A stretch of 64,000 bases of DNA from Promethearchaeota archaeon (GCA_019058295.1 JAHPZI010000015.1:1-64000), one strand, 5' to 3'; counted from the stretch's first letter, positions 58,251 to 64,000 are shown. Notes: generated by a model from the letters alone, not told the origin. Numbers and translations: made by a program.

Positions 58251-59990
58251 ATGAGTTCCACATATAACAAGATTTCAGAAGCGCTCTCTCAGAAATTTAA
58301 GGAAATTATTGGAGATGAATACTTTTTCTCAGAATACGAAATTAGATGGACGTATGCGTTTGGGGGTACAATTTTTAGAAAGGAATGGATACCCGATTTA
58401 ATTTTATTGCCTCAAACTGTTGAACAGGTTTCTCAAATTTTAAAGTTAGCAAACGAGAATAAAATTCCCGTAACTCCAAGAGGAAGTGCTACCAGTCTAT
58501 CCGGCGGTCCTATGACACCCTATAAAGGTATAAGTCTTGATCTAACTAAGATGAATAAAATTATTAAAATAGATATTGAGAACAACCTTGTAGAAACCGA
58601 AGCTGGCGTTATTTGTGATGATTTAAACGAAGAATTAAAATCTCATGGCTATTTCTTTCCTCCTGATCCTGGTTCAAGCTCAGTAGCGACAATTGGTGGG
58701 ATGGTTGCTACGAATGCTGGTGGTATTCAGGCGTTTAAATATGGGGTTACAAAAAATTATGTTTTACATTTAGAAGTTGTCCTGCCTAATGGTAAAATAA
58801 TGAATTTAGGCACAGACGTTTTAAAATCAGTATCTTCATATAATTTAAAAGACTTATTTGTAGGCTCTGAGGGAACGCTTGGAGTTATTACAAAAATTGG
58901 TCTTAGAATTAGACCTTTACCAAAAACACGAAAATTAGGATTATTTATTTTTGATAATGTAGAGGATCTACAGAAGGCTTCAATTGAGATTCGCAAGAAT
59001 GGGATTATTCCCAATCTATTAGAATTTATGGATAAACTTATATTAGAAGCAGTGACCGATTATTTAGGAGGAGAATTCGTAGATTTCCCGAATGGATATG
59101 TTCTCTTAGCCGAAGTTGACGGAGATAATACTAAAGCGGTAGATGAAAACTTCTCTGTAATGTTTGATATAATTATCCAGAATAAACCTATTTTCCATAG
59201 AATTGCTAAAAACAGTGAGGAACGAGAAAGTTTGATTCTAGCCCGAAAGGCTAACCTTCCCGCTTTATCAAGAATAAGACCAACAACATGTGTCGAAGAT
59301 TGTACGATTAAATTATCAGATTTCGCAGATGTAATTAAAAAGATTGAGAAGATTCCTGAAAGTATTAATGCCAAAAACATGCTTGTCGCTACTATCTGCC
59401 ATATGGAGGGTAATTTACATCCTACCTTCTTATTTAATGAAAATGATGAACAGGATGTAAAAGATTTTGAAAAAGCTATTGATTATCTATATAAAGAGAT
59501 TATTATTCCAGCTGGTGGCACACTCACGGGTGAACATGGGATCGGAAAAATAAAGACGCCTTTTCTCGAATTGGAGCATGGTTCTGAGGTTGTGGATATA
59601 ATGAGGCAAATTAAGGAATTGTTTGATCCAAATGGAATTTTAAACCCCGGGATCGGAAAGGGAGACCAAAGACCTTTAAAAAAAGTTAGCGTTCAGAGGA
59701 TTCTGAAAAACCAATCAGATAAAATTTTAGAATTAAAATGTATGCGATGTGGCTTTTGTATAAGTACATGTGCTTCAAGAATTAATTATTTAATTGAGCC
59801 CTATAGTCCAAGAGGTCGATTGAGTATTTTGAATGGTCTTGTTCATGGTGAGATCGAATTAAATGAATTAATCGTAGATATATTTCAAGCTTGCACACTT
59901 TGTGGACTCTGTTATGTAAAGTGTCCTGCAGGAGTTCAGACTCATGATATTTTTGAAAAAGCAAGAGAAATTATTCATAAAAATATGTGA
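58251..59990 (+). CDS. FAD-linked 2-hydroxyacid (D-lactate/glycolate) dehydrogenase, GlcD-like, fused to a 2x[4Fe-4S] domain
   Basis: FPPDP.S, TIGG..ATNAGG, GSEGTLG, H..GNLH, GEHGIG, DPNGILNPG; CMRCGFC and CTLCGLC..CP. Confidence 0.9.
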   Translation: MSSTYNKISEALSQKFKEIIGDEYFFSEYEIRWTYAFGGTIFRKEWIPDLILLPQTVEQVSQILKLANENKIPVTPRGSATSLSGGPMTPYKGISLDLTKMNKIIKIDIENNLVETEAGVICDDLNEELKSHGYFFPPDPGSSSVATIGGMVATNAGGIQAFKYGVTKNYVLHLEVVLPNGKIMNLGTDVLKSVSSYNLKDLFVGSEGTLGVITKIGLRIRPLPKTRKLGLFIFDNVEDLQKASIEIRKNGIIPNLLEFMDKLILEAVTDYLGGEFVDFPNGYVLLAEVDGDNTKAVDENFSVMFDIIIQNKPIFHRIAKNSEERESLILARKANLPALSRIRPTTCVEDCTIKLSDFADVIKKIEKIPESINAKNMLVATICHMEGNLHPTFLFNENDEQDVKDFEKAIDYLYKEIIIPAGGTLTGEHGIGKIKTPFLELEHGSEVVDIMRQIKELFDPNGILNPGIGKGDQRPLKKVSVQRILKNQSDKILELKCMRCGFCISTCASRINYLIEPYSPRGRLSILNGLVHGEIELNELIVDIFQACTLCGLCYVKCPAGVQTHDIFEKAREIIHKNM

Positions 59991-59997
59991 GGAATGT

Positions 59998-61287
59998 ATG
60001 AGATTTGACTATGGAAAAAACGGCTTAGAAATCAATCTTGATCCATCTTGGAATGTCACTATCTTCCATCCAAAGAAACAGAAGGTTATTGAAAATCCAG
60101 TTGACGTTATTAGAAATAAAATTAAAAACCCCATTGGGAGTTCTCCTTTACGTGATATTGTAAATCAAAAGATTTCTTCCCAGAAAGTTTGTATTGTAGT
60201 AAGTGATGCGACCCGACCAGTTCCTTCGCATATTATTTTAGAGGCTATAATTAAAGAATTAAACGAATATGGAATAGCAAAAGCACAGATCACTATATTA
60301 ATTGCACTTGGATTGCATCGTCCAAGTAATAAAGATGAAATAGAACGAATAGTTGGTAAAAATATTTGGCGTCAATGGAGAATTAATGTACTACACCCTT
60401 CACCTAAAAATAGATTGCATGTTAAAGAATTAGGAAAAACGTCTAATGGATCTCCGATATATATTGATAAAGATTTCTATGAAGCCGATCTCAAGATTCT
60501 AACTGGATATGTAGAACCGCATTTCTTTTTTGGCTTTTCAGGTGGTAGAAAGGCTTTAGTACCCGGAATTGCTGGTCAAAAAACTATTATGGACAATCAT
60601 TCAGCAGAAAACATAGCCTCTCCTCATGCTCGATTCGGGATTTTTAAGGAAAATCCGTTACATCAACATGCTCTTGAAATAGCTAAAAAAATGGAGATAG
60701 ATTTTATAGTTAATGTATGTATCAATGAAGATCATAAAATTACCCAAGTAGCTGCTGGAGATTTAGAAAAAGCTCATGAAAATCTAGTTAATTATCAGTT
60801 AAAACATGTATTCAGAGAAATTTCCGAACCTTACGATATAGTAATATGTGGAAACGGAGGGTATCCTTTAGATCTCAATTTGTATCAAGCGGTTAAAAGC
60901 ATGGCTATTGGTGAGATGGCAGTCAAAGAAGGAGGAACAATTATTTCTGTGAATGAATGTTCTGAGGGTGTTGGAATAGGCCAAGAAAAGTTTAAGGAAC
61001 TCATTTTTTCGGGTATGAATCCCAAGGAGATTTATGATAAGATTCTAAATAAAGAAATTATAGTCCCAGATCAATGGGAAATTCAAATTTTAGCAAGGGT
61101 ATTAATGAAAGCTGAAATATATGTCATATCTAAGCTAAAAGAGAAAGAAATTGGAAAGATTGGATTAAAATATGCAAAATCTGTCGAAGAGGCGATTAAA
61201 TTAGGTTTAGAAAAACATGGTAGGGATGCCAAAATTCTGATCTTGCCAAATGGACCACAATTGCTTCCTGTATTGAAAAATAGGTAA
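59998..61287 (+). CDS. larA: Nickel-pincer lactate racemase family protein
   Basis: SDATRP, GLHRP, EPHFFFGFSGGRK..PG, NHS, GYPLD.NLYQ.VK. The second ATG (59998) avoids overlap with the upstream gene. Confidence 0.9.
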   Translation: MRFDYGKNGLEINLDPSWNVTIFHPKKQKVIENPVDVIRNKIKNPIGSSPLRDIVNQKISSQKVCIVVSDATRPVPSHIILEAIIKELNEYGIAKAQITILIALGLHRPSNKDEIERIVGKNIWRQWRINVLHPSPKNRLHVKELGKTSNGSPIYIDKDFYEADLKILTGYVEPHFFFGFSGGRKALVPGIAGQKTIMDNHSAENIASPHARFGIFKENPLHQHALEIAKKMEIDFIVNVCINEDHKITQVAAGDLEKAHENLVNYQLKHVFREISEPYDIVICGNGGYPLDLNLYQAVKSMAIGEMAVKEGGTIISVNECSEGVGIGQEKFKELIFSGMNPKEIYDKILNKEIIVPDQWEIQILARVLMKAEIYVISKLKEKEIGKIGLKYAKSVEEAIKLGLEKHGRDAKILILPNGPQLLPVLKNR

Positions 61288-61298
61288 AACAATTAATT

Positions 61299-61910
61299 CT
61301 ACCATTCTGAAAAGAACTTTTCTTTTGAATAATCTCTTTTTAAAGGCTTTCCTGAAAGCATTGTATAGTATCTCAACATCGCAGATTGTTCTGCTCCAGT
61401 AACATTTTGGAGGGCATCATATAGAGTATTCCCCTTAGCAAATACACCATGAGCTCTTACAACCACAATAGGATAATTTTTCAACATAGGAGGGACTTCT
61501 CGCGCCGCATCTGTAGGGCCCGCGGGATTATCTACCTCAATAACAGGTATTTTTCTATACATATAAATTCCCTCTGCATCAAGACAAGTAATCTCGTCTT
61601 CTATCAGCGATAAAATAACGCAAAAAGGATTATGAGCGTGAATCACGGCCATTGCATCTGTATTTAAATAAATTTGGCGATGTACATTCGTCTCTGTGCT
61701 AGATAGCATAATTCCAGAATCTTGAGTATAGAGATCAGTCTCAATAATATCTTCAGGCTCTAGAAAACCGAGCATGGCACCCCTTCTTTTAATAAGGATC
61801 TTCCCTCCAGCCCTCATACTAATATTACCTGAATGGGAAGTATTATACCTGTGATCAGTTAATACTTTGCCTACAATTTTAAATTGTTTAAAAGTTTCAG
61901 GATCAATCAT
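61299..61910 (-). CDS. fucA: Class II aldolase (L-fuculose/rhamnulose-1-phosphate aldolase-like)
   Basis: SGNIS.R, SSTE..H..IY, VIHAH, HG. Confidence 0.8.
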   Translation of the reverse strand: MIDPETFKQFKIVGKVLTDHRYNTSHSGNISMRAGGKILIKRRGAMLGFLEPEDIIETDLYTQDSGIMLSSTETNVHRQIYLNTDAMAVIHAHNPFCVILSLIEDEITCLDAEGIYMYRKIPVIEVDNPAGPTDAAREVPPMLKNYPIVVVRAHGVFAKGNTLYDALQNVTGAEQSAMLRYYTMLSGKPLKRDYSKEKFFSEW

Positions 61911-63736: not shown

Positions 63737-63738
63737 TC

Positions 63739-63759
63739 AAAGTAATAAAAAATTACTTT
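63739..63759. promoter_or_regulatory. 8-5-8 inverted repeat in a 34-bp divergent intergenic region
   Basis: AAAGTAAT-aaaaa-ATTACTTT between the aor start (63736) and the kinase start (63771). Confidence 0.5.
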
Positions 63760-63770
63760 AAATAATAAAA

Positions 63771-64000
63771 TTGGTTAAAAAACAAGTAATTCTTGCTGTG
63801 GACCTTGGAGCTAGCTCTGGAAGAGTAATTCTTGGAACACTCAGCGTAAGCAAGAAATTGAGTCTAGAAGAGATATACCGGTTCCCTAATGAAGGGATCC
63901 AGGTTAAAAACGAGCTACATTGGGATGTTCCGTATTTATTCAATGAAATAAAACATGCTATGACTAAATATGTTAAAAAATATGGAGCTGATTTAAATTC
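63771..64000 (+). CDS. rhaB: Rhamnulokinase/fuculokinase (FGGY), N-terminal part, runs off the window; absent from the ORF track
   Basis: Manual translation from TTG: MVKKQVILAVDLGASSGRVILG..LEEIYRFPN..LHWDV..LF.EI. Confidence 0.85.
   Translation, partial: MVKKQVILAVDLGASSGRVILGTLSVSKKLSLEEIYRFPNEGIQVKNELHWDVPYLFNEIKHAMTKYVKKYGADLN

Follow-up and report, generated by a model that had tools for sequence, protein, structure and literature searches.

A locus at the right-hand end of a 64,000-nucleotide stretch of DNA from a Promethearchaeota (Asgard) archaeon (GCA_019058295.1, JAHPZI010000015.1:1-64000; henceforth referred to as the window) is probably a bacterial-type phosphorylative L-rhamnose locus that is finished by an aldolase and a ferredoxin-linked aldehyde:ferredoxin oxidoreductase (AOR). 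The core of the locus is a gene pair, in which the AOR gene is followed by a gene for a 203-amino-acid (aa) class II aldolase, and the substrate of this AOR is most likely the L-lactaldehyde that the aldolase would release. Three lines of evidence lead to this reading: the conservation of the pair, the rhamnose and fucose genes that surround it, and its co-occurrence with the L-rhamnose isomerase RhaA or the L-fucose isomerase FucI in related genomes. The same three lines support the core proposal of an earlier note on the window, namely that a kinase, an aldolase and an AOR form a deoxyhexose route in which the AOR takes the lactaldehyde.

In the proposed route RhaA, whose homology exceeds the model cut-off, would convert rhamnose to rhamnulose, and a RhaB-like kinase, whose homology falls just under its cut-off, would convert rhamnulose to rhamnulose-1-phosphate. 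Judging from its context, the aldolase would cleave this intermediate (and in relatives also L-fuculose-1-phosphate) to dihydroxyacetone phosphate (DHAP) and L-lactaldehyde. The AOR would then oxidise L-lactaldehyde to L-lactate with the formation of two reduced ferredoxins, in place of the NAD-linked AldA or of FucO, as the context suggests and as an in-vitro precedent allows (PMC11725836). L-lactate may reach pyruvate either through a LarA-family racemase and a GlcD-type dehydrogenase with a C-terminal iron-sulfur domain (GlcD-FeS), both encoded beside the pair, or through LutA- and LutB-like proteins encoded elsewhere, and pyruvate would be converted to acetyl-CoA by a 2-oxoacid:ferredoxin oxidoreductase (POR). 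Compared with the excretion of propanediol, textbook stoichiometry predicts a gain of one more substrate-level ATP and more H2. Comparative genomics supports the AOR-aldolase step well and the LarA/GlcD-FeS extension weakly.

The AOR and aldolase genes form a conserved pair

The window comprises the initial 64 kb of a contig of 110.7 kb in a metagenome-assembled genome (MAG; G000, henceforth the host genome) of 3.2 Mb that is 79% complete with 3.6% contamination. We searched the AOR protein against 40 related genomes and cut out the surroundings of the matches; a second scan covered one genome per GTDB species, and the nearest public loci that it returned belong to MAGs of Promethearchaeota, Promethearchaeia and Thorarchaeota. 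The order AOR, then 203-aa aldolase, was found in 21/21 distinct orthologous loci, 19 of them in Asgard relatives of three families and two in Chloroflexi MAGs, over a range of divergence in which identity falls to 45% for the AOR and 37% for the aldolase. The intergenic gap is mostly between -4 and 44 nucleotides (nt). The exception is a group of three close loci (G001, G003 and G004) in which an open reading frame (ORF) of 305-310 aa lies between the two genes. This ORF is located at L042:11889-12821 in G004 and at L079:11909-12826 in G001, with an SCP2-domain gene before the AOR gene in both, and G003 (L041) has a gap of equal size; the one inserted ORF that was scanned, that of L042, had no Pfam match.

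In a tree of 86 AOR sequences, the aldolase-paired status is explained by one label change, compared with a mean of 19 when labels are shuffled. The 15 sequences of families f1/f2 form a clade with SH-aLRT support of 100, and all 19 paired Asgard sequences form a clade with support of 80. The host genome contains 12 AOR-family genes, and the 11 other paralogs fall elsewhere on the tree. Because the pairing holds in every orthologous locus examined and the paired sequences form a clade apart from these 11 paralogs, the aldolase-paired AORs are best described as a distinct AOR lineage that is dedicated to the aldolase.

Both proteins of the pair retain intact catalytic residues. The AOR matches AFOR_N with 250 bits and AFOR_C with 435 bits, and its best solved relatives, 9G7J, 9MQX and 1AOR, align over the full length with 505-521 bits. 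The [4Fe-4S] ligands Cys290, Cys293, Cys297 and Cys488, as well as Glu314 and His443, are invariant in 18 orthologs, and the Cys residues align with the CxxCxxxC motif of 9G7J. In the aldolase, Glu73 and the Zn-binding His91, His93 and His154 are invariant among orthologs and align with the Thermus 'fuculose-1-phosphate aldolase' 2FK5, its best solved relative. The top NCBIfam model is PRK08660 'aldolase' (186 bits, under the cut-off of 203); FucA models scored 30-78 bits against cut-offs of 250-400, and no RhaD model was among the matches listed. A complex prediction for the two proteins, made with an 18-row alignment for each, gave a best score of 0.22, where the mark is 0.32.

The coupling of an AOR to an aldolase extends into a bacterial sister clade (Cloacimonadota, Aminicenantes, Acidobacteria, Chrysiogenales and others; 42-47% AOR identity). 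Here the gene immediately before the AOR gene encodes a 276-aa DeoC/LacD-family aldolase in 24/24 loci with upstream sequence, and no class II aldolase was found in the sister-clade loci that were fetched from Aminicenantes and Cloacimonadota, which contain the DeoC/LacD-type gene instead. In the five loci where the downstream side was checked, a pyrimidine-nucleoside phosphorylase or ThyX-family gene is present. The sister-clade locus looks like a deoxynucleoside or deoxyribose module, with acetaldehyde as the substrate that the AOR would oxidise. From the 24/24 pairing, the wider AOR clade as a whole seems to be coupled to aldolases that release an aldehyde, which makes it more plausible that the AOR acts on the aldehyde product of the aldolase, and the different partner aldolases of the two clades suggest that the AOR substrate is set by the partner.

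Rhamnose and fucose genes accompany the pair

ORFs within 10 kb of the pair were clustered in 18 loci and the recurrent clusters were annotated. The neighbours comprise GH78 alpha-L-rhamnosidase (seven loci), GPH transporters (six), GH29 alpha-L-fucosidase (five), RhaA (five), RhaB (four) and FucI (four, with the gene directly after the aldolase in three). A Thorarchaeota contig that was found independently, via the aldolase protein, carries the order RhaA-AOR-aldolase-amidase-GH29, with GH78 and MFS_2 genes nearby. Genes of the URO-D/MtaA family recur in the fucose-type loci between GH29 and GH78 (L043:17182-18210, L045:17167-18204 and L048:19427-20494); one possibility is that they demethylate methylated deoxy-sugars.

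We next consider co-occurrence, counted in 41 related genomes. Of the genomes with the pair, 15/16 have RhaA or FucI, compared to 1/25 of those without it. The presence and absence of the pair and of RhaA/FucI co-vary inside genera g1, g2 and g14, and four f4 genomes contain both the pair and RhaA even though the genes are unlinked. The sole genome with RhaA and without the pair, G030, has an operon of RhaA, a class II aldolase (219 aa), RhaB and a transporter that lacks an AOR gene, which again places a class II aldolase at the ketose-1-phosphate cleavage step.

The host genome itself has RhaA, and FucI was not found in a search of it (79% complete), so rhamnose is supported as the substrate here and fucose only in relatives; the 'fucose' of the earlier note is not supported for the genome from which the window comes. 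In G007 (95%-related) a FucI gene (L040:15675-17471) lies between an OYE gene and GlcD-FeS, and the same interval of the host contig (58132-58251) spans only ~120 bp, which points to a recent loss here or to a gain in G007. One GH78 gene is present on another contig of the host genome. The only other class II aldolase gene of the genome (contig C19) is away from sugar genes; it adjoins sulfatase, inositol-monophosphatase-like and AP-endonuclease-fold genes and is unlikely to encode the rhamnulose-1-phosphate aldolase.

The GlcD-FeS and LarA genes form a separate module

The earlier note had extended the route into a dedicated chain in which the AOR converts L-lactaldehyde to L-lactate, LarA converts L-lactate to D-lactate as a stereochemical bridge, and a D-specific GlcD-FeS oxidises D-lactate to pyruvate. 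We regard this chain as less likely than not. In its favour, the four genes adjoin in the host genome, and in G007 GlcD-FeS and LarA stand between the pair and FucI, so that the module is inside the deoxyhexose locus. The closest solved relative of GlcD-FeS is LctD of Acetobacterium woodii (7QH2_C, 249 bits), followed by glycolate oxidase and the mammalian D-lactate dehydrogenase LDHD; FAD_binding_4 and FAD-oxidase_C match with 153 and 171 bits, respectively, and the protein is a probable D-2-hydroxyacid (D-lactate) dehydrogenase, with a D-specificity that is suggested by family only. LarA keeps all nickel-pincer cofactor, proton-transfer and carboxylate-binding residues (the catalytic His pair, the Lys tether, the His nickel ligand and the Arg/Gln/Lys set) when aligned to lactate racemase 2YJG, with the motifs TRPVP, GLHR, EPH, GGRK, NH and YQxxK conserved, and its top NCBIfam model is lactate racemase. 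The larBCE genes that the earlier note had proposed to look for are present in the genome, with LarB (238 bits, cut-off 175) and LarC on contig C14 and LarE (259 bits, cut-off 150) on C30; LarC adjoins a NikR-like regulator gene, which scores under the NikR model cut-offs. LarA beside a GlcD-type lactate dehydrogenase is also a known arrangement in bacterial lactate utilisation (PMC5910564, citing Weghoff 2015).

Against a dedicated chain stands the distribution of the module. GlcD-FeS orthologs of equal length and 50-93% identity are present in 17/40 relatives, and LarA directly follows in at least 12. The usual setting is an NMO-like FMN protein gene followed by GlcD-FeS and LarA, beside TFB and G3P-dehydrogenase-like genes and away from the pair. 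The module touches the AOR-aldolase locus only in the host genome and G007, and this adjacency counts as one evolutionary event. GlcD-FeS is found in 10/16 genomes with the pair (it is absent from 6/16) and in 8/25 without it, a distribution that does not clearly link the two phyletically. Synteny, which the earlier note had wished to see compared, accordingly divides the cluster: the AOR-aldolase pair is conserved in rhamnose and fucose loci, and GlcD-FeS/LarA stands beside it in two close genomes only. Furthermore, LarA (440 bits against a cut-off of 460 for NF033504; next model malate racemase LarAH6, 397 bits, cut-off 500) and GlcD-FeS (375 bits against 568 for TIGR00387) both score under their equivalog cut-offs, so other 2-hydroxyacids are possible substrates, and LarA matches solved lactate, broad-spectrum and malate racemases alike (245-274 bits). 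GlcD-FeS and LarA are best regarded as an independent, conserved operon for the racemisation and oxidation of a 2-hydroxyacid, probably lactate, in which GlcD-FeS may have the NMO-like protein as its redox partner.

A second set of genes weakens the stereochemical argument. On contig C23 of the host genome (G000:C23:62941-67478; L161:4941-9478), genes for a LutA-like (CCG) and a LutB-like (LUD plus 4Fe-4S) protein lie directly upstream of POR alpha and beta, and form a candidate L-lactate-to-acetyl-CoA unit for which no racemase would be needed. Because these LutAB-like genes, which could oxidise L-lactate directly, stand beside POR, the argument that L-lactate oxidation needs LarA is not compelling, and the view of the earlier note that stereochemistry explains LarA as part of the route is not supported. 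As a working route the LarA/GlcD-FeS bridge is plausible, at a probability well short of even, and it would be neither dedicated nor stereochemically required. A URO-D/MtaA-family gene precedes the LutAB-like genes on C23 (L161:3739-4896).

A still broader picture is also possible, though less likely than not: an AOR lineage hard-wired to aldehyde-releasing aldolases in Archaea and Bacteria, with class II FucA-like partners in Asgard archaea and Chloroflexi and DeoC-like ones in Cloacimonadota and Aminicenantes. In Asgard archaea it would complete a rhamnose/fucose pathway of bacterial type by oxidising lactaldehyde with ferredoxin to L-lactate, to be passed in the genus of the host genome by LarA and an iron-sulfur D-lactate dehydrogenase to pyruvate and acetate, with extra ATP and with H2 for a syntrophic partner in place of propanediol excretion.

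Several further observations concern the module. The Asgard block at L142:1068-11172, also seen in L143, L144, L146, L147 and L152, has TFB, LarA, GlcD-FeS and NMO-like genes on one strand, and is conserved; divergent from these genes are a longin-like gene, a 113-aa gene, a DAO-BFD/Pyr_redox_2/DUF1667 trio (G3P-dehydrogenase-like) and a dual-specificity phosphatase gene. The GlcD-FeS, aldolase, AOR, RhaB and RhaA proteins of the host genome and G007 are 93-99% identical; the LarA proteins of the two (59998-61287 and L040:12464-13741) share 67% identity, and those of all other relatives are also ~65% identical to the LarA of the host genome, so either the host genome or G007 seems to have exchanged its LarA allele. 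A LarA homolog located 1.5 kb from a Helarchaeota aldolase gene was considered as a second aldolase-LarA link and rejected (31% identity, no GGRK lysine motif), and the second LarA of the host genome (C29) is also a paralog of 30% identity beside amidohydrolase genes.

Alternative roles of the pair

A number of observations weigh against lactaldehyde oxidation as the role of the pair. The aldolase scores under every NCBIfam equivalog cut-off, so its substrate is assigned from context alone. The Fisher p value of 4e-9 for the association of the pair with RhaA/FucI overstates that association because related genomes are not independent. In the four f4 genomes, in G039 and in the two Chloroflexi loci, the surroundings of the pair are free of deoxyhexose genes to a distance of 10 kb, and its neighbours there are a DHDPS-family aldolase, a permease and an aminotransferase; one metagenomic lineage has the order AOR-aldolase-Fer4 protein with no rhamnose or fucose genes nearby (the protein encoded after the aldolase is of the Fer4_16 family and 309-314 aa long). 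A Helarchaeota aldolase (L154:8815-10615) that is 83% identical has no adjoining AOR gene and is preceded by FMN_red and Flavoprotein (PF02441) genes. Three genes for Fe-type alcohol dehydrogenases (Fe-ADH) and three for aldehyde dehydrogenases are present elsewhere in the host genome, and their products could also handle lactaldehyde. Finally, of the tungsten-pterin genes that the earlier note had proposed to seek, MoaC, MoeA (MoeA_N) and WtpA were not found in the host genome (79% complete), and MoaC and MoeA_N were also not found in the congeners G007 (99% complete) and G001 (92%). G007 and G001 each have many AOR-family candidate matches despite this lack, and G004 and G006 have MoaC and two MoeA genes on one contig; either binning frequently misses the MoaC/MoeA contig or the pterin cofactor is scavenged by some members. 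The metal of the AOR would, by family, be tungsten.

One alternative is that the pair serves another ketose-1-phosphate, such as 5-deoxyribulose-1-phosphate or methylthioribulose-1-phosphate, in a DHAP shunt that salvages radical-SAM by-products, with acetaldehyde or methylthioacetaldehyde as the aldolase product and with an incidental adjacency to rhamnose genes. The loci without deoxyhexose neighbours in f4 Asgard genomes, Chloroflexi and the metagenomic lineage would fit such a role, as would the weak NCBIfam matches of the aldolase to MtnB-type models and the DeoC-type aldolase, expected to yield acetaldehyde, to which the sister AOR clade is coupled. We nevertheless consider it improbable, given the strong co-occurrence with RhaA/FucI, which holds also in the f4 genomes with unlinked genes, and the rhamnosidase, fucosidase, FucI and RhaA genes that recur immediately beside the pair; none of the pairs was seen to adjoin an MtnA- or MtnK-like gene. 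It is similarly unlikely that the AOR is a general aldehyde scavenger and that the main fate of lactaldehyde is reduction to 1,2-propanediol by an Fe-ADH or oxidation by an NAD-dependent aldehyde dehydrogenase: AORs that have been characterised accept a wide range of substrates (PMC11725836), and the genome contains the 12 AOR, three Fe-ADH and three aldehyde dehydrogenase genes noted above, but one AOR lineage alone is tied to the aldolase, at near-zero intergenic distance over deep divergence, and no Fe-ADH or aldehyde dehydrogenase gene is located near the rhamnose locus.

Of the three Fe-ADH genes, two have another AOR paralog at a distance of no more than ~1.5 kb (G000:C8:40147-43181 and G000:C22:105103-108129), an arrangement that suggests acid/aldehyde/alcohol modules.

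Layout of the locus

The earlier note had described five contiguous genes at 58251-64000, and ORF and domain scans found all five of them (Table 1). They are contiguous but are arranged in four transcription units of alternating orientation and do not form a single operon: AOR and aldolase make up one unit (29-nt gap) and GlcD-FeS and LarA another. The AOR and rhaB genes are divergent, with a 34-bp AT-rich spacer between them. As the earlier note had stated, the mechanical ORF list misses the kinase. It lies on the strand opposite to the ORF listed there (63758-64000, minus), and has a TTG start and the N-terminal motif VDLGASSGR; the listed ORF was rejected as the kinase, and is taken to be spurious because it has no family match. 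The kinase scores 485 bits with the rhamnulokinase model TIGR02627 (cut-off 528) and 122 bits with the fuculokinase model. An overlap or fusion of GlcD-FeS and LarA was likewise rejected, as the probable LarA start, an ATG 8 nt past the GlcD-FeS stop with GAGGA 5 nt before it, gives a normal LarA N-terminus.

Beyond the kinase the contig contains RhaA, an FAD oxidoreductase, an esterase, an Fe-S protein and a GPH/MFS_2 transporter, so that an isomerase and a transporter, which the earlier note had proposed to look for to the right of the window, are indeed found there. RhaA exceeds the cut-offs of both NF002203 (650 bits, cut-off 572) and TIGR01748 (589 bits, cut-off 585). Upstream of the locus, a 1978-aa ORF occupies 44693-50629 (minus strand) of the window, followed by a CocE/NonD-family hydrolase gene and a GH3 beta-xylosidase/arabinosidase-like gene.

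Table 1. Genes of the rhamnose locus, and the AOR loci of the bacterial sister clade
Feature	Position	Strand	Family evidence
GlcD-type FAD dehydrogenase with C-terminal 2x[4Fe-4S] (GlcD-FeS), 579 aa, without CCG domain	58251-59990	+	PF01565, PF02913, Fer4_8/17
LarA-family nickel-pincer 2-hydroxyacid racemase, 429 aa	59998-61287 (mechanical ORF from 59944)	+	Lar_N, LarA_C
Class II FucA-like aldolase, 203 aa	61299-61910	-	PF00596
AOR-family aldehyde:ferredoxin oxidoreductase, 598 aa	61940-63736	-	PF02730, PF01314
Rhamnulokinase-like FGGY kinase (RhaB), 500 aa	63771-65273 (window holds the 5' part, to 64000)	+	FGGY_N, FGGY_C
L-rhamnose isomerase RhaA	65282-66553 (just right of the window)	-	NF002203, above equivalog cut-off
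GPH/MFS_2 sugar transporter	70458-71867 (right of the window)	-	Domain match
Sister-clade AOR loci with DeoC/LacD-family aldolase	L049:9144-11755, L057:2035-4645 and 22 more (L050-L078, L109)		

Comparison with known systems

The predicted pathway resembles the RhaA-RhaB-RhaD and FucI-FucK-FucA pathways of the Escherichia coli type in its isomerase, FGGY kinase and class II Zn aldolase, which yields DHAP and L-lactaldehyde. It differs in its Asgard host, in its short 203-aa aldolase, which scores under the model cut-offs, and in the fate of the aldehyde: E. coli-type pathways use AldA or FucO, neither of which is encoded in the Asgard locus, where an AOR gene appears to be co-transcribed with the aldolase gene instead. 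Closest in function comes RhaEW (YuxG), a fusion of rhamnulose-1-phosphate aldolase with L-lactaldehyde dehydrogenase in Chloroflexus aurantiacus and Bacillus subtilis (PMC3870299). Aldol cleavage is there coupled genetically, and tightly, to the immediate oxidation of lactaldehyde to lactate, as is predicted for the Asgard pair, which consists of two genes instead of a fusion. RhaW was assayed with NAD+ and is non-homologous to AOR, for which a tungsten- or molybdenum-pterin and ferredoxin are expected from the family; PMC3870299 mentions neither ferredoxin nor archaea.

The tungsten enzyme WOR1 of Eubacterium limosum oxidises lactaldehyde among other aldehydes in vitro (PMC11725836). It belongs to the same superfamily as the Asgard AOR but is multisubunit and bifurcating, and is tied to growth on lactate and not to an aldolase. 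Williams et al. 2022 suggested from the gene inventory of Ca. Lernaellota MAGs that AORs remove rhamnose-derived lactaldehyde (PMC9324843); that suggestion was made without synteny, whereas in the Asgard case a specific AOR lineage is fixed beside the aldolase gene. For the neighbouring module the comparison is with the lct operon of A. woodii, which comprises the GlcD-type lactate dehydrogenase LctD, EtfAB, a lactate permease and the LarA-type racemase LctF. The two share the adjacency of a GlcD-family FAD dehydrogenase to a LarA-family racemase, and LctD is, as said, the best solved relative of GlcD-FeS; the Asgard module differs in having no Etf or permease genes, in the 2x[4Fe-4S] domain of its dehydrogenase and in the NMO-like FMN protein gene upstream.

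We found no description in the literature of a dedicated AOR-aldolase operon, nor of phosphorylative rhamnose or fucose catabolism, in Asgard archaea. The earlier note had stated that no description of its energy-conserving variant was known. This stands for the AOR-aldolase pair, and does not for the component ideas, as the removal of rhamnose-derived lactaldehyde by AORs had been suggested earlier (PMC9324843), and the activity of WOR1 (PMC11725836) and LarA beside a GlcD-type dehydrogenase (PMC5910564) had been reported. Overall, the Asgard AOR-aldolase step is a variant of a known rhamnose pathway, and one that we have not found described before.

Implications for Asgard archaea

Rhamnose and fucose are abundant in the algal and plant polysaccharides of the sediments where Asgard archaea live. 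The catabolism of these deoxyhexoses yields lactaldehyde, which is toxic and which anaerobic bacteria usually reduce to propanediol, often in microcompartments, at a loss of carbon and energy. Ferredoxin-linked oxidation would instead let a strictly anaerobic, H2-producing archaeon convert the three-carbon half of the sugar to lactate, perhaps even to acetate with a yield of ATP, while supplying a partner with low-potential electrons. The proposed pathway would be a mosaic, in which bacterial-type RhaA and RhaB are joined to an AOR family that is best characterised in hyperthermophilic archaea. It offers a concrete physiological substrate for one of the many Asgard AOR paralogs, and the constant coupling of an AOR clade to an aldolase would provide a useful rule for annotation. 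It would also add a sugar fermentation to the metabolism that is usually drawn for these relatives of eukaryotes.

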